NCBI GenBank assembly: GCA_963779255.1
Contig: CAVZXU010000025.1
Location: 67-64,066, forward strand
DNA length: 64,000 bases
Reading direction: 5' to 3'
From: Terriglobia bacterium
GTDB lineage: Bacteria; Acidobacteriota; Terriglobia; Terriglobales; Acidobacteriaceae
This document shows positions 2,615-55,067 of this stretch, one piece after another. The notes beneath the pieces were generated by a model, which saw only the letters and a program-made list of their open reading frames with translations, ran no database searches and was not told the DNA's origin. The position numbers and the translations under genes were made by a program. The first letter of the stretch is position 1. Every line of letters begins with the position of its first letter.

Positions 2615-5600
2615 TTGTTTTCACGTCGAACCTTCTTAAGAGGAATACGGTGGGCGCCTGTACTCTTTCTTCCGGCGCCCTTTCAGACAGCGCCTCTCCG
2701 GCTGCCGCTCTCCGAAACGTCCAGGGCCCGCTCCTCTTCATTCCCCTTCTCTGATTTCCGTCTGACTCCTCGCTATCCCGCGAAGTCCGCGCTCGATGAT
2801 GTTCTGCTGCAAGTTGTTCCGGGCGCGGACGAGTACCTCACCGAGAAGTACGCGTCTGAAATCATGCCACTGCTCAAGCAATGGAGCACAGAGCTCAGGA
2901 CGGCGCCACCCGCGCTCGCCGTCCTGACGAAATTCCTCGATGCCTCTATCGAGGCCGCTGCTCTCCTTCCGACTCGAGAAGTCGTGCAGCGTTCAGGCAA
3001 CGGCATCGAGGTCTTCCGCAGACGTTTCGCGAGGGATGTCATCTCCGGCCGCGAGCGATTTCTGCGCGAGATGGAAAACTATCTGGCCCCGATGTGGCGA
3101 GTGGAGACGGCGGAATTCGAAATCGTTGGGATCAGGGAAATCGCGGGCTCCTCGTCGATGTTCGATATCGACATTCGTTATGACCTGGTCGGCACTCGCA
3201 AGGACGCCGCGCGCGAGCAACGCGTGGGACAATGGCTGACTCGCTGGTCGCGCGATGAAGCTCAGGGCTGGCGCGTGTTGCGCTGGCAGGCGACCGAAGA
3301 GACCCTGGCTCGCGCCCGCGAACCGATTTTCATTGACGTCACGGCCCAGGCCCTCGGCCAGACTGCTTCATACAGAGATCAGATGCTTCGCGGTGTTGAT
3401 CACTGGCGCACCGTGCTCGACGGGGCGTCCGGGATCGACGTTTACGGCAACAATGGCCTGGCCATGGGAGATTTCGACAACGATGGATTTGACGACCTCT
3501 ACGTGTGCCAGCCCGCGGGACTTCCCAACCGCCTCTATCGCAATCGCGGGGATGGCAGCTTCGAGGATGTGACTGAAGCATCGGGAGTCGGCGTGCTCGA
3601 TGACACGGCCTGCGCTTTGTTCGCCGATTTCCGAAACAAGGGAGTTCAGGACCTTCTGGTAGTTTGCGGCGGCGGCCCGTTGCTGTTCCTGAACCAGGGG
3701 AACGGGAAATTCTCGCTTAAGCCCGACGCCTTCAAGTTTGCCCAGCCTCCGCAGGGAACGTTCACCCATGCCGCCGTCGCGGACTACGATCGCGACGGTC
3801 TTCTCGACATCTACTTCTGTCTGTACAGCTATTACGCGGGGCTGGACCAGTATCACTATCCCGTCCCTTACTTCGACGCGCGCAATGGACCGCCAAACTT
3901 TCTGCTGCACAACGAAGGTAACGCAACCTTCAGCGATCGGACTCAGGCTGCGGAACTGAACGTGGATAACGACCGCTACAGTTTCGCCTGCGCCTGGGGC
4001 GATCTCAATTCTGACGGGACACCCGACCTCTATGTGGCCAATGACTTCGGGCGCAGCAATCTCTACCGCAACAACGGAAATGGGACCTTCGCTACCATCT
4101 CGTCTGAGGCAGGCGTTGACGACGTGGGCGCCGGCATGAGCGCGTGCTGGTGCGATTTCGACAACGACGGGAACCAGGACATCTACGTGGCCAACATGTG
4201 GTCCGCTGCCGGCCACCGGGTTTCAGAACAAGAGATCTTCCATGAGAAAGATCCCGAGAACATCCGCGCCCTTTACCGCAGACACGCCCGCGGCAATTCC
4301 CTCTATCGCAATCAGGGCAACGGAAAATTTCAAAACATAAGCGAACAGGTGGGAGCCGAGATGGGCCGCTGGGCCTGGTCCTCCGACGCCTGGGATTTCG
4401 ACCACGATGGCTACCCCGACCTGTACATCGCCAACGGCTATATTTCCGGGCCCGACCCTCGCGATCTCTCCAGCTTCTTCTGGCGGCAGGTGGTGGGAAA
4501 TTCGCCGCAGAATTCGAACCCGTCGTCCAGTTACGAGCAGGGATGGAACGCGATCAACGAAATGATCCGCTCGGATTCTTCCTGGGCCGGCCCCGAGAGA
4601 AATGTTTTTTACGCCAACAACCGTGACGGCACGTTTTCTGACGTCTCCGGCGCAGTTGGTATGGACTTTCCCGACGACAGCCGCTCCTTTGTCCTTGCCG
4701 ACCTCGACCACGACGGACGATTGGAAGTCATCCTCAAGAATCGGACCGCGCCGCAACTGCGGGTGCTGCGCAACGCCATGAAAGATATTGGCCACTCCAT
4801 CGCATTCCGCTTGCGCGGACAAAAAAGCAATCGCGATGCGATCGGCAGTGCGGTCACGGTCGAAGCCGGAGCACTCCGCCAGACAAGATACCTCCAGGCA
4901 GGCTCCGGATTTTTGTCCCAGTACACCAAGGAGATCTTCTTTGGATTGGGGGAAGTCGAGGGCCCTGTCCGCGCCACGGTTCGCTGGCCCAGCGGTCTCA
5001 CGCAGACCTTTGCGAGCTTGCCGGTAAACCGCCGCATCGAAATTGAGGAAGGCTCGAATGACCTTGTGGCGAAGCCCTTTGCGGTATCGCCTCCTTCCTA
5101 TGCGCATGCTGGCGAACTCCAGAAGTTGCAACCTCTGCCATCGTCGGTTGAGACCTGGCTGATCGAGCCCTTGAGCGCACCGGACTTTTCGTTGCCTGAC
5201 CTGGAGGGTAAGACGTGGGACCTGCTGTCGTTCCGCGGCAACTTCCTCCTGCTTAGTTTTTGCTCCACCGCCTCCCGGCCATGCAGAGAACAGATGCGCC
5301 TTTTCCGCCAGGGTAGATCATCCCTTGCTTCTGGCGGCCCTCGCATCGTTGGCATCAACGTGGACGATCCCCGCGATGTGCGGACCGTGCAAACATTCGT
5401 GGCCCAGGAAGGCTTCTCCTTCCCCACACTGCTCGCCACGCAGGACATAGCAGGCGTCTATAACATTGTTTATCGCTACCTGTTCGACCGCCGCCGCGAC
5501 CTCGGCCTGCCCACATCGTTTCTCCTTAATAAGGAAGGCATGATCGTCAAGGTGTACCAGGGGCCGGTGACTGCGGAGCGGCTGCTGGCTGATGTGAAAT

Positions 5601-6424
5601 CGGTCCCGAGCAACTCAGCCGATGGGGTGCGAAGGGCCCTGCCGTTCGCCGGGACGCTTTTCCTGAGCGCGTTCCAGCGCAACGACTTTACTTACGGCGT
5701 TTCCTTTTTTCAGCACGGATATCTCAAGCAGGCGGAAGCGTCCTTCAAGCAGGTCATCGCCGCCAAGCCCGACCGTCCCGAAGCCTTTTACAACCTGGGG
5801 ACGCTGTATCTCAGGAGAAACGCCTTTCCCGACGCGCGCAAATATCTGGAACAGGCGGTAAAGCTGCGTCCGGAGTATCCCGAGGCCTGGAACAATCTCG
5901 GAATGATTGCCGCGAATGAAAATCAGGTGGACGAGGCGGTTCGCAACTTCCAGCAGTCGTTAGAACAGCGGCCAACCTACGCTATCGCGTTGCTGAACCT
6001 TGGCAACCTGTACCGGCGTCAGGGCAACCTGGCGGAAGCGGAGAAGTTTCTGAACCGCGCTCACGAAATTGAACCCGACGACCCCGAGGTCAACTACAAC
6101 CTGGGAATGCTCTACGCCCGCCAAGACCAGACCCAGAGTGCCCAGCAGTATCTCGAACGGGCCGTGAGCGTGCGCCCGGACTATCCCGACGCGCTCAACA
6201 ACCTGGGCGTGCTCTTTGTTCGTGAACAGCGTTATCCGGAAGCGGAGCAAAGATTCAAGACGTGCATTCAGGCGGCCCCCAATTTCGACCAGGCCTACAT
6301 GAATCTGGCCCGCCTTTACGTCATTTTGAATGACAAGGAAAAGGCCAGAGAAGTATTGCTCGCCCTGCTGCGCCAACAGCCGCAGCACAAGATGGCCCAG
6401 CAGGCGCTGGAAATGCTACATTGA
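2615..6424 (+). CDS. Large secreted FG-GAP/VCBS repeat + ASPIC/UnbV protein (CRTAC1-like) fused to a thioredoxin-like (TlpA/redoxin) domain and C-terminal TPR repeats
   Basis: Intact 1269 aa ORF. TTG start with a Tat-like signal MFSRRTFLRG. Repeated GDFDNDGFDDLYV / WCDFDNDGNQDIYVAN / LYRNNGNGTF motifs. UnbV_ASPIC-like block RGQKSNRDAIGSAVTVEAG..YLQAGSGFLSQ. Redoxin-like block DFSLPDLEGKTWDLLSFRGNFLLLSF. About 8 TPR units (AFYNLGTLYLRRN, AWNNLGMIAANEN, and others). Confidence 0.85.
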   Translation: MFSRRTFLRGIRWAPVLFLPAPFQTAPLRLPLSETSRARSSSFPFSDFRLTPRYPAKSALDDVLLQVVPGADEYLTEKYASEIMPLLKQWSTELRTAPPALAVLTKFLDASIEAAALLPTREVVQRSGNGIEVFRRRFARDVISGRERFLREMENYLAPMWRVETAEFEIVGIREIAGSSSMFDIDIRYDLVGTRKDAAREQRVGQWLTRWSRDEAQGWRVLRWQATEETLARAREPIFIDVTAQALGQTASYRDQMLRGVDHWRTVLDGASGIDVYGNNGLAMGDFDNDGFDDLYVCQPAGLPNRLYRNRGDGSFEDVTEASGVGVLDDTACALFADFRNKGVQDLLVVCGGGPLLFLNQGNGKFSLKPDAFKFAQPPQGTFTHAAVADYDRDGLLDIYFCLYSYYAGLDQYHYPVPYFDARNGPPNFLLHNEGNATFSDRTQAAELNVDNDRYSFACAWGDLNSDGTPDLYVANDFGRSNLYRNNGNGTFATISSEAGVDDVGAGMSACWCDFDNDGNQDIYVANMWSAAGHRVSEQEIFHEKDPENIRALYRRHARGNSLYRNQGNGKFQNISEQVGAEMGRWAWSSDAWDFDHDGYPDLYIANGYISGPDPRDLSSFFWRQVVGNSPQNSNPSSSYEQGWNAINEMIRSDSSWAGPERNVFYANNRDGTFSDVSGAVGMDFPDDSRSFVLADLDHDGRLEVILKNRTAPQLRVLRNAMKDIGHSIAFRLRGQKSNRDAIGSAVTVEAGALRQTRYLQAGSGFLSQYTKEIFFGLGEVEGPVRATVRWPSGLTQTFASLPVNRRIEIEEGSNDLVAKPFAVSPPSYAHAGELQKLQPLPSSVETWLIEPLSAPDFSLPDLEGKTWDLLSFRGNFLLLSFCSTASRPCREQMRLFRQGRSSLASGGPRIVGINVDDPRDVRTVQTFVAQEGFSFPTLLATQDIAGVYNIVYRYLFDRRRDLGLPTSFLLNKEGMIVKVYQGPVTAERLLADVKSVPSNSADGVRRALPFAGTLFLSAFQRNDFTYGVSFFQHGYLKQAEASFKQVIAAKPDRPEAFYNLGTLYLRRNAFPDARKYLEQAVKLRPEYPEAWNNLGMIAANENQVDEAVRNFQQSLEQRPTYAIALLNLGNLYRRQGNLAEAEKFLNRAHEIEPDDPEVNYNLGMLYARQDQTQSAQQYLERAVSVRPDYPDALNNLGVLFVREQRYPEAEQRFKTCIQAAPNFDQAYMNLARLYVILNDKEKAREVLLALLRQQPQHKMAQQALEMLH

Positions 6425-41246: not shown

Positions 41247-41488
41247 AAGCAAAACAGGCAAGGCCGTCCTGGGTAGCGCCGGCCTCTGGCCGGCCCGATG
41301 GGCGGGCGGGGACGTCAGCCAGAAAGCCGGCGGGGCGGCGGCGCTACGTTGTCGCCTGCCAGGCAATCACCTTATCTCTTGACAATATTCCCCTCCTGGA
41401 GCTAATTTCGTTTAGAGAATAAAAAGCGAAAGTGCGATTTGCAGCCTCGGCCAGCCGCCCCGGCGTTTCCCTGAAATTGAGGTCCTTA

Positions 41489-42424
41489 ATGTCCTCCCCA
41501 CTCTTTTACGCCCCGGCGGGCGGCGCGGTTGTCTTTACTGCAAAGAAGGAACCGACGCTGGTTTTACAACGGCTGGCGGCAATGCCCAAGCTGGCGGGGG
41601 TGACGGCGGCATCGCGGCTGGAGGTACGGCCTACGCCGGAGATGGTCTCCAGCGGAATTCGCGAGCTTGATGAGCTTGCCGGCGGGCTTCCACGGGGATG
41701 TTTGAGCGAGATTTGTGGACCAGCCTCTTCCGGACGCACCAGCGTGTTGCTGGCTGCCCTGGCAGCAGCTACCCGGCGCCAGGAAGTCTGTGCCCTGGTG
41801 GACACCACGGACGCGCTCGATGCGGTCTCGGCTGCAGCAGCGGGAGTTGAGCTGGAAAGATTGCTGTGGATACGCTGCGGGCGGGCGCCGGGCGCCGGAC
41901 CTCAGACCTCGGGCGTCAGCCCTCAGACCCCAGGAACGAAATTCGAAGTGCGGAACCCCAGGTCCGAGGCCCGAAGTCCGATGTCTGAAGTCCGACGTCC
42001 GACGCCCGAGGTCCGGTCTCTCGAGCAGGCGCTGCGAGTTACTGATCTGCTTTTGCAAAGTGGGGGCTTTGGCCTGGTGGCCATTGATCTCGGCGATGTG
42101 CCGGACGCGGCCGCGCGGCGGATTCCACTGGCTTCCTGGTTTCGCTTTCAGCGTGCCGTCGAACCCACTGCCACGGTGCTATTGGTGGTGGCCCAGGCGC
42201 CCTGCGCTCTGACTTGCGCTTCTCTGCTGATCAGGCTGCGGACCGGGAAACAGCTTTCAGCTATCAGCTCTCAGCTTTCAGTTAAAAGCGAACTTTCGCT
42301 GGCCCACGTGCAACTTCTGGATGGATTGCGCGTTGAAGGAGAGCTGCTGCGTTCGCGCATGCAGAGAAAACCGACACAATCCGTCACCGCGGTTTTCGCC
42401 ACAAAAGCGGTGCGGATTGCGTAG
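41489..42424 (+). CDS. imuA: ImuA-like (RecA/SulA-fold) translesion-synthesis accessory protein carrying repeat-derived insertions
   Basis: SSGIRELDELAGGLPRGCLSEICGPASSGRTSVLLAALAAA..VCALVDTTDALD..GVELERLLWIRCG. ATG at 41489 follows GAGG; a GTG at 41432 is possible. Confidence 0.7.
   Translation: MSSPLFYAPAGGAVVFTAKKEPTLVLQRLAAMPKLAGVTAASRLEVRPTPEMVSSGIRELDELAGGLPRGCLSEICGPASSGRTSVLLAALAAATRRQEVCALVDTTDALDAVSAAAAGVELERLLWIRCGRAPGAGPQTSGVSPQTPGTKFEVRNPRSEARSPMSEVRRPTPEVRSLEQALRVTDLLLQSGGFGLVAIDLGDVPDAAARRIPLASWFRFQRAVEPTATVLLVVAQAPCALTCASLLIRLRTGKQLSAISSQLSVKSELSLAHVQLLDGLRVEGELLRSRMQRKPTQSVTAVFATKAVRIA
41896..42014. repeat. Inverted pair of heptanucleotide arrays (CNGACCT type, then GANGTCC type), in frame inside imuA
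   Basis: 41896-41937 reads CGGACCT CAGACCT CGGGCGT CAGCCCT CAGACCC CAGGAAC. 41966-42014 reads GAGGCCC GAAGTCC GATGTCT GAAGTCC GACGTCC GACGCCC GAGGTCC. The outer ends are complementary (ccggacctc..gaggtccgg). Confidence 0.8.
42251..42285. repeat. Heptanucleotide array CAGCTNT x4-5, in frame inside imuA
   Basis: CAGCTTT CAGCTAT CAGCTCT CAGCTTT CAGTTAA, encoding ..QLSAISSQLSVK.. Confidence 0.75.
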
Positions 42425-42560: not shown

Positions 42561-42588
42561 TGACGACCGACGACTGATGACTGATGAC
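42561..42588. repeat. Heptanucleotide array TGACGAC/TGATGAC x4, containing the imuB start codon
   Basis: TGACGAC CGACGAC TGATGAC TGATGAC. The ATG at 42584 lies inside the last unit. Confidence 0.75.
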
Positions 42589-44188
42589 TGCTTTCGCCTG
42601 CATCTACGTTCCTGACTTTCCGGTCGAGGCCCTGCTGCGCACCGAACCTGGCTTGCGCTCACAAGCTTTGGCCGTGCTTGAAGGCAAAGCGCCGCTGCAA
42701 ACGATTTTTGCTTTGAACGAAAAGGCGCGCCACGCCAGCGTTTCGCCGGGAATGACGAAACTTCAGGTGGAAGCCTGCTCTGATCTTGTACTGCGTCCAC
42801 GATCTTTATTACAGGAAGCCGCCGCCCACGCGGCCTTGCTCGACTGTGCCCAGTCATTTTCGCCGCGTGTGGAAGATGCGGGTTGTGACACCGTCCTTCT
42901 CGATCTCGCCGGCCTGGAGCCGCTTTTCGGTTCGCTGCCAAAAATCGCGCGGGATGTAGCGCGCCGTGCTTCCGATCTTGGCCTCGAAGCCAATGTTGCC
43001 GTGGCTTCCAACCCGGACACGGCCGTACTCGCGGCTCTCGGCTCTTCCGGTGTGATCGTGATTCCTGAAGGAAGAGAGGCCGAGCAGTTGGGCAATCTTC
43101 CCCTGGAAGTGTTGTTTACCGGAGGACACGATCTCCAAGCCCTGGACGTACTTGAGCGCTGGGGCATCCGAAATCTTCGCGCTCTGGCCGCGCTGCCTGA
43201 AGTCGCGCTGAGCGAGCGTCTGGGCCAGGAAGGCATTCGCCTGCAACAATTGGCGCGTGGCTGCAGTTCCCGATCGCTGGTTCCAGTCGAGCCGCCGCTG
43301 GTTTTCGAAGAGGCGATCGAACTGGAATATCCACTGGTGCTGCTCGAACCGCTGGCGTTTCTGCTGAGTCGTTTGCTGGAACAGCTGTGCGTCCGCCTGG
43401 GCGCGCGGGCATTAGCCACTCAGGAGTTAAACCTGGACCTGACCCTGGAATGCAGCACCCGAGAACACGTGGGGACGGGCGCCCCCGCCCGTCCGGGTCA
43501 AGCGCAAGCTCGACAAAGTTTCCACCGCGCCCTGCGCCTGCCTGTTCCCCTGCTGGACCCCAAAGTTTTCCTCAAGCTGCTGCAGCTTGATTTGAATGCA
43601 CACCCGCCCGGCGCTCCCATCGTGAAGATCCATTTATCGGCGGAGCCGGTGCGGCCGCGGGCAGCGCAGAGTGGTTTGTTCCTGCCTCCTTCTCCGGAGC
43701 CGGAAAAACTCGAACTCACATTGGCGAGGATTGCGGGAATTGTTGGTCAAAATAAAGTGGGGTCACTGCAACTGCTGGACACACACCGTCCAGAAGCATT
43801 CCGGATACAACATTTTGCCCCGGATCAGAGGCCGGAGCAGACGGCTCACAATCCCAAGGCATCCCGGAATGACAAATTCGGGGAATCTCAAAAACAAAAT
43901 GAAGTCGCGGTGACCGCGATGCGTATCTTCCGCCCACCCTTGCACGCCACCGTGACCCTGCAGGAAGGCAGGCCTGCGCGCATGGCTTGTCCCAGGCGCA
44001 AGGAGATTTGTGGGGAAATCCTCTGGGCCGCCGGTCCCTGGCGCACCTCTGGAGACTGGTGGGAGCAGGAAGGATGGGCCCGCGACGAGTGGGACATCGC
44101 GTTACAGGAAGCAACCGGCATCACGCTCTATCGCCTGGTCCGCGATTTGCTCAGCGGACAGTGGCAGGTGGAGGGAAGCTATGACTGA
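42584..44188 (+). CDS. imuB: ImuB (Y-family DNA polymerase-like, translesion synthesis cassette)
   Basis: MTAFACIYVPDFPVEALLR..LAVLEGKAPLQTIFALNEKARHASVSPGM..LLDLAGLEPLFG. It is 534 aa and lies directly downstream of imuA. Confidence 0.8.
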   Translation: MTAFACIYVPDFPVEALLRTEPGLRSQALAVLEGKAPLQTIFALNEKARHASVSPGMTKLQVEACSDLVLRPRSLLQEAAAHAALLDCAQSFSPRVEDAGCDTVLLDLAGLEPLFGSLPKIARDVARRASDLGLEANVAVASNPDTAVLAALGSSGVIVIPEGREAEQLGNLPLEVLFTGGHDLQALDVLERWGIRNLRALAALPEVALSERLGQEGIRLQQLARGCSSRSLVPVEPPLVFEEAIELEYPLVLLEPLAFLLSRLLEQLCVRLGARALATQELNLDLTLECSTREHVGTGAPARPGQAQARQSFHRALRLPVPLLDPKVFLKLLQLDLNAHPPGAPIVKIHLSAEPVRPRAAQSGLFLPPSPEPEKLELTLARIAGIVGQNKVGSLQLLDTHRPEAFRIQHFAPDQRPEQTAHNPKASRNDKFGESQKQNEVAVTAMRIFRPPLHATVTLQEGRPARMACPRRKEICGEILWAAGPWRTSGDWWEQEGWARDEWDIALQEATGITLYRLVRDLLSGQWQVEGSYD

Positions 44189-44687: not shown

Positions 44688-45212
44688 CTATTTCGTGATT
44701 ACGCCGCAGGCAATGCGGTCACCCGCGTTTCCGGCCGGGTCGGACTTCATGTCATCCGCCTTGGCATGAATCACCAGCGCCGTGCCGCCGTTGCCGAACA
44801 GGGAGTGGCTGTCGTCGCCCAGAGTTACGTCCTTGTTCACCACTTTGTACTTGGCTTTGCCCTTGGCGTTTACGGTGAAGTTGTTCATGTCCCCGGCGTG
44901 GTGGCCTTCGGGATTCTCCAGGCCATGCTTCTTTCCCTCGGGATTAAAGTGCGGGCCGGCCGATTTGAAATCCGGCGCGTCGCATTGCGCCTTCTGGTGA
45001 AAGTGCAAAGCGTGCACCCCGGGCGGAAGGTCGTGCAGTTTGAGCTCTATGGACACGCCCGACGATGCTCCCTTGCTCCATAGCACCGCCGTTCCCACGC
45101 TCTTGCCCTGCGCGTCTTTCAGTTCGACCGTAGTCTTGGCAGCTGCTGCGATCGACAGGGCGAAGAACGAACACAATCCGATGGCAAGTAAGAATGGCTT
45201 GGCGATTTTCAT
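44688..45212 (-). CDS. sodC: Periplasmic Cu/Zn superoxide dismutase
   Basis: Signal MKIAKPFLLAIGLCSFFALSIAAA. HALHFHQKAQC..GPHFNP..HHAGDMNNF..ALVIHAKADD..AGNAGDRIACGVI. Confidence 0.9.
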   Translation of the reverse strand: MKIAKPFLLAIGLCSFFALSIAAAAKTTVELKDAQGKSVGTAVLWSKGASSGVSIELKLHDLPPGVHALHFHQKAQCDAPDFKSAGPHFNPEGKKHGLENPEGHHAGDMNNFTVNAKGKAKYKVVNKDVTLGDDSHSLFGNGGTALVIHAKADDMKSDPAGNAGDRIACGVITK

Positions 45213-45430
45213 AGCTTGGCAATTATAAACGCTACAGCCTCTGCAAGTCGCCCCGTGCACTTCTACGCGCGGGCACAGTTTGAAATCTGCGCCGGCGTCA
45301 TCCTGAACGGCCTTTAGGCCATGAAGGATCTGGCACGCAGCAGTACAATTCCGGCCAACGTAATATCTGCTACACGCCAGATGCTTCGCAAGCTCAGCAT
45401 GACGCTGTCGCCGAGCGAGGCTGGGTATCG

Positions 45431-47147
45431 CTACCGCATGGAGACATAGAAGGCATTGTTCCCCGACCGCAGGTCTTTGCCATAGGAAAAGGCAACTCCG
45501 ACGCCAAACACGCGCACCGTGGCCTGAGGCCCCAGGTCCCACAACCATTTCTGCGAACCCAATCCGGCGGAGGCGTCGGTAATTTTGCCCGTGTCCAGAA
45601 ATGGCCCCAGCTTTACGGTAAAGATGCCGTTGCGATACACGTTCTTGTCGGCTTCCCAATTGGACAGGGAAATAATTCCGCCCCATCGGAGCGCTGCCCT
45701 TCCGGCCGTCGCGGGTCCCGATATGCCCTCGCATCTCAAGATCGTTATCGCGCTCGAGGCCAAGCATAAAGAGCTCGTCGAATGGAACCTCCCCGAACGT
45801 TTTGCCGGCCCTGATTCGGTGCTGTATCTCGTAGTCGTCGCCTTGCGATTGCGGAAGCCAGTGAAACCGCAATGAGCCTTGCAGCTTCTCGAATGAGTGC
45901 GAGGGTTGCGACCAGATACGCCCTGCCTGTGAGGACACGCCACCCTCCAGGGTCACTCGTCGTTCCGGCACACGCCAAAGCCCGGCGCTTAATTGCGTGA
46001 TTTGCTTGAGCTGGTATCCCTTGGTCAGCAGGCTCGGAGTAGACGCCGTTCCCGCAATCACGCTGCGGAAGTCGCGATGCGAAATTTCGGCTCCGGCAGA
46101 CCACTGCCAGCGCCCGCTTTCGAAAGAAGCGAAATCCACCCCCACCGCTTCTCGCCGCATGTTGAAGCTTCCCAACACGGGCGCCGGACCCTGAAACGAA
46201 TTCCTGATGTCCCAATTTTCACTGCGCAAGTCGGCGGTCAGTCCGTAGCGAAATTTTGGATTGGCCTTGAACGGACTCGACAGCCGCGCCAGCAGCCGCC
46301 GCTTGTCCGCATCCCAGCGATACATGGAGACGAAGTTGATGGCCAGGTGGCGCAGGTTGTAAACCTCCGGAGTAACGCTTTGAAAGGGCAAGCCCCGAAA
46401 CAGCAGAAACAGCTTTTCCAGCTTGCCCTGGCCCCATCCGTCGCGCTCGCGGTTGCGGAGAAGAATGTCAAACTTGCCCTCGTCGCGGGCCTGCAGATCA
46501 AATTGGTAGCGGGAGAAAATTTCCAGTCCGCGGAGGCGGACCTCGGTAGGCAGCAGATCGGGCAGGCGCAGGACGCTGGCCGGCGCGAAAGCCATCGCAC
46601 GATCGAGCAATGCCGCATTCAGTCGGGGCGGAGGCTGGCTTCGTATCTCCACAATTTGTGGCTTGCCCACGCGGTTCCAATACTTCAGGGCGGCTGCGAT
46701 ATTTCCCTGCAGAAAATAGACGGTGCCAAGAAAATCGTTGCCGTAGGAATCAGTGGGATCAAGACGCAAGGACCGCCGCAGGTGGCGCGCCGCGACTGGG
46801 TACCGCTTCTGCTTGAATGCCACTCCCGCCAGTTCCAGTGGAAATCGCTTGTCACCGTGCTGGAGCTGGGCTCCGGCCGCAGACGCCCGCTGCGCATCGT
46901 CCCAGCGTCCTAGTTGCGCGAGTGCCGTGCCGTAGTAGAAATCGAGTTCAGCCGAAGGGCGCTGTGAGGATTCGGCAAGGCCGACCACTTCCTGCCATGG
47001 CTGTTGGGCAGACAACTGCCGGGCGCGCTCGGCCAATGGGCCATCCGAGATTTGGGCAGCAGTCAGGGCCGCAAAGCTGAAGAAGAATACGAAGACAATA
47101 CTCGGGATCAGCGAGATTGGGTGTGAGGCAGTGCCAGCAGCGTCCAT
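45431..47147 (-). pseudogene. TPR + outer-membrane beta-barrel protein with a single frameshift (possibly a sequencing error)
   Basis: ATG at 47147 with a hydrophobic N-terminus. TPR-like units (DFYYGTALAQLGRWDDA, NDFLGTVYFLQGNIAAALKYW). Alternating beta-strand patterns. The frame changes at a C-run near 45667-45670 (..APMGRNYF / LSNWEADKNVY..). The C-terminus is ..GVAFSYGKDLRSGNNAFYVSMR. Confidence 0.6.
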
Positions 47148-47656
47148 TTTCCGGCTGCACTCCATTCCCGTTCGAAGCTCGGCCGGTCCTGTTGCAGAAG
47201 CTTGCGCTGCGCGGGATCGTTGACCATCACCATTTCCGGTCCCAGCCCACTCACAACCACATAGTGCAGAGCGCCGCCGCCCGCTGGTTTCAGGGCAACG
47301 ATCAAAGGGCGTCCCTGGGCGAGATGCTGTTGGAGGTCTTCCCACCCTCCGCGAATTGTAAACGTGCGGAACCCCTGCTCCTGAAAGTAGCGCTCCATAT
47401 CGGAAGCATAGATGCCGTGGGCTTTGGACGAATACAGTGTGCGCTGGATCCGGGTTGCGTCGGAAGCGTCGTTCGGCGGCTGACACCGCTGGGCCTGCCA
47501 GTATTGCATCACCATGGCAATGCTGGCCGCTCCGCAGCCGTCCTTTTCCTGCTTTACGAAAGGGACATCCAGCCAGACGCCGGGGAGGTCCGCAGCCAGC
47601 AGCATGCCGCAGACTCCGAACAGCAGGACCACGATCCTGACCATCCGACCAAACAT
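47108..47656 (-). CDS. C39-like cysteine peptidase domain protein (secreted)
   Basis: LDVPFVKQEKDGCGAASIAMVMQYW (catalytic Cys context), then ..ALHYVVVSGL..VMVNDP (His/Asp). A signal-anchor is present. The gene overlaps the next gene by 40 nt. Confidence 0.75.
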   Translation of the reverse strand: MFGRMVRIVVLLFGVCGMLLAADLPGVWLDVPFVKQEKDGCGAASIAMVMQYWQAQRCQPPNDASDATRIQRTLYSSKAHGIYASDMERYFQEQGFRTFTIRGGWEDLQQHLAQGRPLIVALKPAGGGALHYVVVSGLGPEMVMVNDPAQRKLLQQDRPSFEREWSAAGKWTLLALPHTQSR

Positions 47657-53104: not shown

Positions 53105-53671
53105 TTACTCTCGTCCTACTCCCAGCGCGTCCGCTACGCGGTTGATGTAGTTGAACCAGGAGGCAATCAACGTTATCTGCAGAATCGCCTTATCGTCGAA
53201 GCCGGCGGAGCGCAGACGTTCGTGGTCGTCTTTCCAGATCTTGGTCGCGTCTTTTGTGATCTTTACCACGTAGTCGAGCATGACCCTCTCCGGCGGAGTG
53301 ATGGGAGCGGTGGTGTAGTCCTTTTCCAGCGCATCAACCAGAGCCGTATCCAACGTGACTCGACGCAGAAACTCTGCGTGTGAGTCGATTCAATAAACGC
53401 ACCGGTTGGTGACTGAAACCACGGTGGTGATCATCTCGTGCTGGCGCCGGGAGAGCGGCAGGTCGGGAGACATCAGCACGCCGAAAGTGGCGAAGGCGTG
53501 GTAGAGAGCCTCAGGAATGAGGCTGTGGGACTCGGTGATCATCGCACCCCCACCTTCCGTGGGATGCACCGGGGTTGCGTACTCCTTTGGATAGAGAGAC
53601 TTCTGGCCTTCCATTGCCTGGCGCAGCTTTTCGTCGCCTTGGGAGACTGGAATGGTGCGGATCCAGGTCAT
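53105..53671 (-). CDS. CMD/AhpD-like 'peroxidase-related enzyme' with an in-frame UGA at 53390..53392; a candidate selenoprotein (CxxU)
   Basis: ORFs 53390..53671 and 53105..53353 are in the same frame, separated only by one TGA. Read-through gives ..[21 protein letters not shown].., where the family motif is N-x-C-x-Y-C-x-x-x-H. A hairpin follows the TGA. Confidence 0.6.
53357..53386 (-). promoter_or_regulatory. Candidate bacterial SECIS hairpin
   Basis: The minus strand reads UGA AUC GACUC AC ACGCAGA GUU UCUGCGU C GAGUC: 12 bp of stem with one small asymmetric bulge. The G/U-containing apical loop lies about 17 nt after the UGA. Confidence 0.5.
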
Positions 53672-54193: not shown

Positions 54194-54565
54194 TCAGATC
54201 AGTCCGTCTTTCACCCTGCGAAGAAAGTCTTCCGCATCGGCCTGAGCCTTTTTGGCGGCGTTGGGATCATTGCGGTTCTCGAAAGTGATTTCCTGCAACG
54301 TAATCTGGGCCGCGTCTTTGGGTTTGAAGCCTCGGGTGACCAGCTTTCTGGCCCGCGCCGCAAAACTCTCAGAGTCAACCAGCGCTGCTGGCTCGCCGTG
54401 CACCGTGCAATCGTGGTCCTGGAACTTGCTTGCGGCCAACCGGTCGTAGGCACTCTTGGCTTCCGTATCGGTCAGCATTGCCGGCACCGGAAAAGTCCAG
54501 CCGCACTGGGAACACGCCCAGCCAGTCAGGCGTTGGTGCGATACCCATGTAAGCCATCTGCCCAT
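54194..54565 (-). CDS. Hypothetical protein (123 aa)
   Basis: The ORF has a Cys/Trp-rich N-terminus WACSQCGWTF. I recognise no family. Confidence 0.45.
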   Translation of the reverse strand: MGRWLTWVSHQRLTGWACSQCGWTFPVPAMLTDTEAKSAYDRLAASKFQDHDCTVHGEPAALVDSESFAARARKLVTRGFKPKDAAQITLQEITFENRNDPNAAKKAQADAEDFLRRVKDGLI

Positions 54566-54569
54566 GGTT

Positions 54570-55067
54570 CTCCCTCATTTGCCGCAGGGGGTAAAGAATG
54601 CCTGGGCCCGAGTCACGTTCTTTACTTCCTTGGTAGGAATGCGGCGAATGTACGAAGCGAGGTTCTCCCCAACCCAGCGTGCCCCCCCCGGGACGCTGAA
54701 TGTTGCCGGAAATAATCTTACAAGAACAAGCCCGCCAGCAGTAGTGACGGCTTAGGGAACCGGCGATCCGGTCATGGAGGACGGGCGTCCTCTCCCGTCG
54801 CCATTGCAGATGGTTCATGCGGCATCTGTTACTCCCGTATTCCGCCACAACCAACGGCGTCAGCGCCATGTGCACGTGATCAGGCATCACCACCACGGCG
54901 TGCATTGCGAACTTTCTACCGTTCCCCGCAAGGCATGTATCAATCACGATATGAAGCACCGATTCCGGGAGGATCCAGCGGTGGTGCGTGGAGAAAGTGA
55001 TGAAGAAGGCTTTGAAATCCGGCTGATAGTGGGGCAGCTTACGGCGGTACTCATACTTGCGCTGCAT
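54570..55067 (-). pseudogene. REP-associated tyrosine transposase (RAYT, IS200/Y1-like) remnant
   Basis: The N-terminus YRRKLPHYQPDFKAFFITFSTHHRWILP..FAMHAVVVMPDHVHMALTP is the Y1 transposase HUH region. The rest is out of frame and degenerate (..ENLASYIRRIP.. lies in another frame). Confidence 0.65.

Follow-up and report, generated by a model that had tools for sequence, protein, structure and literature searches.

A gene on the minus strand of a 64-kb stretch of DNA from a Terriglobia bacterium (contig CAVZXU010000025.1; the stretch as a whole is called the window, and all gene positions are window coordinates) very probably encodes, as judged from its sequence, one 188-residue AhpD-like thiol/selenol oxidoreductase of the 'peroxidase-related enzyme' family (TIGR01926 / COG2128), with the active site Glu79...Cys91-Val-Tyr93-Sec94-x-x-x-His98. 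With the same high confidence, UGA94, the single stop codon inside the frame, is predicted to encode selenocysteine (Sec), read with the help of a conserved hairpin downstream. Public annotation wrongly presents the gene as two proteins.

Reading frame, catalytic column and conservation of the UGA

Inspection of the sequence places two open reading frames (ORFs), 53390..53671 (-) and 53105..53353 (-), in one frame with a single TGA at 53392..53390 between them. This arrangement, with its read-through ..TNRCVY-[UGA]-IDSHAEFL.., had been described in an earlier, sequence-only reading of the window, with which the sequence agrees throughout. Read through, the gene extends from the ATG at 53671 to the TAA at 53107..53105 and has 188 codons, of which codon 94 is the one internal UGA, in the motif T-N-R-C91-V-Y93-[UGA94]-I-D-S-H98-A-E-F-L; a TTG start at 53353 heads the downstream ORF. 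The gene and its active-site codons are as follows.

53105..53671 (-), full-length AhpD-like (TIGR01926 / CMD-family) selenoprotein gene, predicted from the frame and profile matches
53390..53392 (-), in-frame UGA, codon 94, predicted selenocysteine at the second Cys of CxxC (CxxU), from the homolog column
53399..53401 (-), Cys91 codon TGC, first (resolving) Cys of C-x-Y-U, invariant in the Cys-homolog alignment
53378..53380 (-), His98 codon CAC, conserved His of C-x-x-C-x-x-x-H and also the 5' edge of the hairpin core, from the alignment and the proton-relay residues of PMC3141380
53435..53437 (-), Glu79 codon GAG, 12 residues before Cys91, equivalent of PA0269 Glu36 and M. tuberculosis AhpD Glu118, from the invariance of E79 and its spacing relative to PMC3141380

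Profile searches were run on the product with Cys set at codon 94, and gave 114.9 bits for TIGR01926 ('peroxidase-related enzyme'; cut-off 81.8) over residues 51-185 and 38.9 bits for PF02627 (Pfam CMD; cut-off 23). Two related selenoprotein models, NF041238 and NF053654, were matched but far under their cut-offs, and the product is not a member of either. The nearest solved structures are the 'uncharacterized peroxidase-related' AhpD-like proteins 2pfx, 3c1l, 2prr and 2oyo, and D. radiodurans AhpD 6k40; sequence identity to solved Cys structures is only 25-32%, and the CxxC of these nearest structures aligns with C91 and codon 94. An AlphaFold model was made of the Cys homolog P0065, which is 76% identical, not of the window protein itself; this model has a mean predicted local distance difference test score (pLDDT) of 80, above 90 over most of residues 71-170, matches 2pfx and 6k40 with a template-modelling (TM) score of 0.78, and has the active-site motif at the turn between helices 75-89 and 92-105. 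Residues E79, C91, Y93, C94 and H98 are invariant in an alignment of 35 Cys homologs, and the spacing of E79, C91, Y93, codon 94 and H98 equals that of the five-residue proton relay of AhpD-like proteins, formed by Glu36/Cys48/Tyr50/Cys51/His55 in PA0269 and by Glu118/Cys130/His132/Cys133/His137 in M. tuberculosis AhpD (PMC3141380).

Related loci were gathered in a scan of a genome collection with one genome per species, and in a metagenome scan seeded with a Cys homolog; counts are among the matches listed. The genome scan gave at least 80 loci at 74-98% protein identity, nearly all labelled Terriglobia, Terriglobales, Acidobacteriaceae or Candidatus Sulfotelmatobacter, and the metagenome scan at least 80 further loci. 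Relatives of the source genome include CAWDFW01 (MFD05942.bin.2.32), CAVWVN01 and the closed chromosome OY970199.1, the last with an ortholog at 82% identity. Of the 163 gene copies listed by tblastn (Terriglobia metagenome-assembled genomes (MAGs) and soil metagenomes), 149 have TGA as codon 94 and 14 have TGC. Among the 120 best database proteins column 94 is Cys in 39; genuine Trp or Gly is never found there in homologs, the W entries being TGA read as Trp, and the Cys homologs are single 188-residue chains. That the UGA takes the place of the second Cys of C-x-Y-C-x-x-x-H, as had been proposed, is thus borne out by alignment, with Cys in the Cys homologs and selenocysteine (U) in the catalogued AhpD-like selenoproteins at this column.

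Each of the 147 full-length TGA forms can be read on for 93 codons or more past the TGA without a second stop or a frameshift. The ratio of nonsynonymous to synonymous substitution rates (dN/dS) is 0.10 downstream of the TGA versus 0.19 upstream. Constraint within the gene is strongest in the 12 codons from the TGA to the first possible restart (the TTG), where dN is 0.05 and dN/dS 0.08; His98 and Glu100, both invariant, lie in this stretch. The window has 26 ORFs of at least 300 codons, 14 of which end in TGA, so the genetic code is standard here. A scan of the window for in-frame TGAs with open flanks returned 115 candidates, of which this one alone had a redox motif, and was too noisy to be used.

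Three variants were seen among the relatives. On one soil contig (L087, Ga0190271_10021926) a Sec form (TGA, CFY*LESH) at about 1500-2060 stands in tandem with a Cys form (TGC, CLYCRESH) at about 2090-2650, a natural Sec/Cys paralog pair. Cys-type metagenome relatives (L083-L086, L088-L090, L093 and L095) have Thr for the first Cys (N-R-T-Y-Y-C-T-V-S-H), that is, a TxxC motif. One locus labelled Candidatus Cybelea sp. (L067, DASPVZ010000025.1) carries an 80%-identical TGA form with the same hairpin core and is the one clear exception to Terriglobia or Acidobacteriota labels among the 80 genome loci; if Candidatus Cybelea belongs to the Eremiobacterota, as we take it to, this copy would mean horizontal transfer or mis-binning.

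The expectation that ORF callers split the gene in two was confirmed by the public records, which cut it into a 93-residue 'hypothetical protein' for the N-terminal part (HLO07969.1, MBZ5651034.1, MGZ4733660.1) and a C-terminal part of 82 residues named 'carboxymuconolactone decarboxylase family protein' or 'peroxidase'. The exact 93-residue product was found on 164 contigs, and none of the public records examined labels the gene as a selenoprotein. In 76 of the 120 best database proteins a 'W' stands at the UGA column; these are nearly all Joint Genome Institute (JGI) calls on short contigs in which TGA was translated as Trp (P0001-P0050 and others), giving a false 'CVYW' motif that hides the selenoprotein. 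An ENA protein (P0087, 168 residues) is without exactly the 20 residues around the UGA.

The hairpin downstream of the UGA

The sequence-only reading had described a 12-bp hairpin beginning three nucleotides after the UGA. Such a hairpin is present in the window; only its upper 7 bp are conserved among orthologs, and the lower 5-bp stem is not. Two features are therefore distinguished.

53357..53386 (-), whole 30-nt hairpin GACUC-AC-ACGCAGA-GUU-UCUGCGU-C-GAGUC, comprising lower stem, internal loop and core, from folding
53363..53379 (-), conserved 17-nt core ACGCAGA-GUU-UCUGCGU, a 7-bp stem with a 3-nt loop (GUU, 53372..53370), from alignment and folding

The 30-nt hairpin begins 3 nt and the 17-nt core 10 nt past the UGA. 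Folded alone, the hairpin has -14.8 kcal/mol; its 61-nt context has -20.5 kcal/mol (z = -2.5), a stability reached by 2 of 200 shuffles. The TGA together with the 18-nt core is found a single time in the window and never in 100 shuffles. Among 133 distinct orthologous sequences, five pairs of the upper 7-bp stem never change and the other two persist in more than 90%, one further pair is conserved beyond the upper stem, and the G of the loop is invariant; pairs of the lower 5-bp stem are unpaired in 15%, 29%, 64% (pair 13-42) and 79% (pair 15-40) of the sequences, and the lower stem is largely specific to the window sequence.

Conservation of the core extends to its synonymous sites. Codons +4 to +9 (His-Ala-Glu-Phe-Leu-Arg) are CAC GCA GAG TTT CTG CGT, each in 99-112 of 112 distinct TGA forms, while beside the core in the TGA forms synonyms vary, the adjacent Ser using all four TCN codons and the next Arg all six of its codons. 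For the same amino acids the 13 Cys forms use mixed codons (TTC in 9/13, CGC in 9/13, CGT in 0/13). The synonymous rate (dS) is 0.62 in codons 95-106, compared with about 1.5 elsewhere. The check among orthologs that the sequence-only reading had suggested thus gave a supportive result, with TGA in 149 gene copies and the core kept at synonymous sites, and TGC forms without such conservation.

The core was compared with the consensus model of bSECISearch for the bacterial selenocysteine insertion sequence (SECIS), as restated in PMC13188914; MFE is the minimum free energy.

Apical loop: model 3-9 nt; here 3 nt
Upper stem: model 4-16 bp; here 7 bp
G at loop position 1 or 2, as a rule with G or U next: required; here G then U (GUU)
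UGA to apical loop: model 16-37 nt; here 17 nt
MFE: model -7.5 kcal/mol or lower; here -8.2 kcal/mol (17-nt core)

The conserved core agrees with every published bacterial SECIS criterion (PMC13188914), and the geometry that had been put forward, with a G/U loop about 17 nt downstream, holds on all counts. With the bSECISearch model the element shares its position directly downstream of the UGA in the coding sequence and a loop that begins G-U; it differs in lying at the low end of the ranges, with a triloop and a spacing one above the minimum, and in having no conserved lower stem or bulge. In its size of 17 nt and its spacer of 10-11 nt it is presumably like the minimal fdhF SECIS of E. coli.

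Proposed decoding and rival explanations

The mechanism that we propose follows the established bacterial Sec mechanism, with the decoding machinery assumed. At UGA94 the ribosome would meet a stem-loop whose GU-containing apical loop is bound by SelB carrying Sec-tRNA(Sec); SelB would deliver selenocysteine and so forestall termination by release factor 2. In the folded protein, Sec94 would be the attacking selenolate, which Cys91 would resolve to a selenenylsulfide, and a Glu-Tyr-His relay would activate the centre, as in proteins of the AhpD type with peroxiredoxin-reducing or weak peroxide-reducing activity. Use of Sec in this phylum has been documented: Acidobacteria were listed with three selenoprotein families in 2006 (PMC1794560), and Occallatibacter riparius DSM 25168 (Acidobacteriota) is a Sec-utilising test organism with three known selenoproteins, including an 'AhpD-like protein' with NRCPYULDSH (PMC12013277, Data S1).

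Three results weigh against a selenocysteine codon read with a SECIS element. Neither the 64-kb window nor about 0.9 Mb of related loci yielded a gene for selA, selB, selD or tRNA-Sec: ARAGORN found no tRNA-Sec in the window, whose one tRNA gene is a tRNA-Glu, or in 167 related sequences (about 0.9 Mb), crude six-frame motif scans of the window and related loci gave neither SelD (GxGCGCK) nor SelB/EF-Tu (GHVDHGKT), and no sel gene lies within 10 kb on either side of the gene in six sister contigs. The stem has no covariation, five of the seven upper pairs never varying and no compensatory changes being present in the 133 sequences. Each free wobble base pairs with a first- or second-position base fixed by the amino acid, so that compensation would alter the protein, and structural support comes therefore from synonymous-site conservation, not from compensatory changes. 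Finally, the hairpin has no Rfam match, either in the whole window at gathering thresholds or in 53250..53500 at E up to 10, and it is uncertain whether Rfam has a bacterial SECIS model.

Recurrence of the TGA, the open frame, the low dN/dS downstream and the ordinary TGA stops of the window together practically rule out a reassigned code, two independent small proteins, and an origin of the TGA by nonsense mutation or by sequencing error. The nonsense mutation, with TGC changed to TGA at the catalytic Cys codon and a fortuitous hairpin in a pseudogene, was the alternative that the sequence-only reading had kept; it would be a single transition-type step, that reading had noted other broken genes in the window, and neighbouring genes are fragmented differently in sister contigs. 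It is nevertheless highly improbable, the TGA being shared by 149 gene copies at a dS of about 1.5 (74-98% protein identity among the genome loci), the frame downstream being open in 147/147 under a dN/dS lower than that upstream, and the synonymous sites of the hairpin core being fixed only in TGA forms. We give as little credence to two separate proteins of 93 and 82 residues, with the hairpin serving termination-reinitiation coupling or mRNA stability, for which the separate ORFs of public annotation and the TTG start at 53353 could be cited: the stretch between TGA and TTG is the very one most constrained and holds invariant His98 and Glu100, the Cys homologs are single chains of 188 residues, and the modelled fold of P0065 is one domain, in which a break would hit the active-site turn between two helices. 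An error of sequencing or assembly in the contig has a practically negligible probability; names of related MAGs do suggest long-read assemblies, and gene fragmentation does differ among sister contigs, but the same codon recurs in assemblies that many projects made independently on various sequencing platforms, and the exact 93-residue N-terminal product stands on 164 contigs.

Decoding of the UGA as something other than Sec could take the form of Cys inserted via a tRNA-Sec-like tRNA(Cys) and a SelB paralog, of another residue inserted by an acidobacterial 'allo-tRNA' suppressor, or of a reassigned code (TGA as Trp or Gly). Acidobacteria do have unusual 8/4 and 9/3 'allo-tRNAs', possible nonsense suppressors, and other phyla have a selC* tRNA(Cys) together with SelB* (PMC5389517); W stands at the column in the 76 JGI proteins, and Sec machinery was not seen in the window or the related loci. 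We consider it very unlikely all the same: TGA terminates 14 of the 26 long window ORFs, as in the standard code, homologs have Cys at the column and never Trp or Gly, selC* was found in Firmicutes, Thermodesulfobacteria, Nitrospirae and Proteobacteria, not in Acidobacteria (PMC5389517), the hairpin fits a SECIS model of the SelB type, and for Acidobacteriota both Sec use and an AhpD-like selenoprotein are on record (PMC1794560, PMC12013277). A more elaborate idea is that UGA and hairpin in Terriglobia are more than a plain Sec site, being partly decoded by allo-tRNAs or by a SelB-like factor that inserts Cys or another residue, or forming a selenium-sensing switch between the 93-residue product and the full enzyme; it would fit the lack of Sec machinery in the sequence available together with the rigid, sequence-invariant hairpin, and we regard it as a slight chance.

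Genomic surroundings and known relatives

The gene looks like a stand-alone unit. Analysis of conserved neighbours in the related loci gave no conserved redox partner beside it; what recurs, in about 35-50 loci, is a divergent TPR protein on the upstream side and, on the downstream side, an AMP-binding / PP-binding / acyltransferase gene. In this lineage a LysR regulator and two small ORFs lie in between. Neither a sigma-70 promoter nor an intrinsic terminator pattern was found around the gene. A short ORF upstream, its TGA overlapping the ATG, was dropped, being conserved in the closest relatives only.

Within 10 kb on either side of the gene in the sister contigs L161-L166, a TPR protein of 982 residues, an AMP-binding protein of 853 residues and a GFO/IDH/MocA oxidoreductase are intact in some contigs and in 2-4 pieces in others, a variable splitting that fits assembly indel errors; all six keep the TGA of the selenoprotein gene. 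Gene breaks of the window were also compared with the sister contigs for homopolymer indels, a comparison that is not clean, the contigs being about 10% divergent. The ORF 54375..55067 (-) starts like a Y1 (IS200/REP-type) transposase, continues in low-complexity sequence and overlaps a conserved 123-residue gene at 54194..54565 (-), the one just upstream of the selenoprotein gene; the Pfam Y1_Tnp match is on the counterpart genes in L161 and L162, sister contigs call the ORF at 242-259 residues or not at all, and it is probably frameshifted.

Further ORFs of the window were recorded as follows.

2615..6424 (+), 1269-residue protein with FG-GAP repeats, ASPIC/UnbV, AhpC/TSA (peroxiredoxin-like) and C-terminal TPR repeats, an unusual thiol peroxidase architecture
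41432..42424 (+), RecA-like ORF (partial RecA match), followed by 42584..44188 (+), impB/mucB/samB (IMS) family polymerase-like ORF; we take the two to resemble the imuA-imuB mutagenesis pair
44688..47486 (-), 932-residue ORF with a TPR region and a C-terminal Cu/Zn superoxide dismutase domain; its counterpart in L165 is two genes (577 and 236 residues) overlapping in different frames, and either the window or L165 probably has an indel here

The family itself is known, as the sequence-only reading had correctly stated. AhpD-like CxxU selenoproteins have been described since 2005, from the Sargasso Sea and Global Ocean Sampling (GOS) analyses onward, with AhpD-like 1 corresponding to COG2128 and AhpD-like 2 to PF02627 (Zhang and Gladyshev 2008, PMC2398784), and a 2026 review has the entry 'AhpD-like protein, TIGR01926, CxxU, MCB9421940.1' (PMC13188914). 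What is new is a misannotated and very widespread member, very common in acidic-soil and peat Acidobacteriota. Its importance lies mainly in the correction of annotation and in the addition of a widespread soil selenoprotein to the Terriglobia selenoproteome; knowledge of selenocysteine decoding or of AhpD-like enzymes is not changed by it. The invariant 18-nt SECIS core with a UGA 9 nt upstream could mark Sec use in uncultured lineages.

With the Cys proteins 2pfx, 3c1l, 2prr, 2oyo, 6k40, PA0269 and M. tuberculosis AhpD the product shares the all-helical AhpD-like fold (from the P0065 model) and the two-helix active-site hairpin Glu...Cys-x-Tyr/His-Cys-x-x-x-His; they differ in having Cys where the window gene has UGA, and in M. 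tuberculosis AhpD the motif lies in another part of the chain (PMC3141380). With MCB9421940.1 (CHYU) it shares the TIGR01926 family, the length class, the layout from the N-terminal M-x-W-I onward, an end-to-end identity of 40%, the U column in N-x-C-x-Y-U-I-x-x-H and a SECIS directly after the UGA inside the coding region; it differs in belonging to a separate ortholog group (60% of residues differ), one confined to Terriglobia and soil metagenomes, with a near-invariant 18-nt SECIS core. The source organism and O. riparius presumably belong to the same order. With the AhpD-like protein of O. riparius DSM 25168 (CPYU, NRCPYULDSHAYFLR) the product shares the phylum, the U column and 42% identity in the 115 residues of the catalytic and C-terminal part (PMC12013277), but the N-terminal 70 residues are unalignable, which makes the O. 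riparius protein a member of a paralogous subfamily and not an ortholog. Given the 40% and 42% identity and the U column shared with these catalogued members, the gene of the window belongs to a known selenoprotein family, in which it represents a distinct ortholog group.

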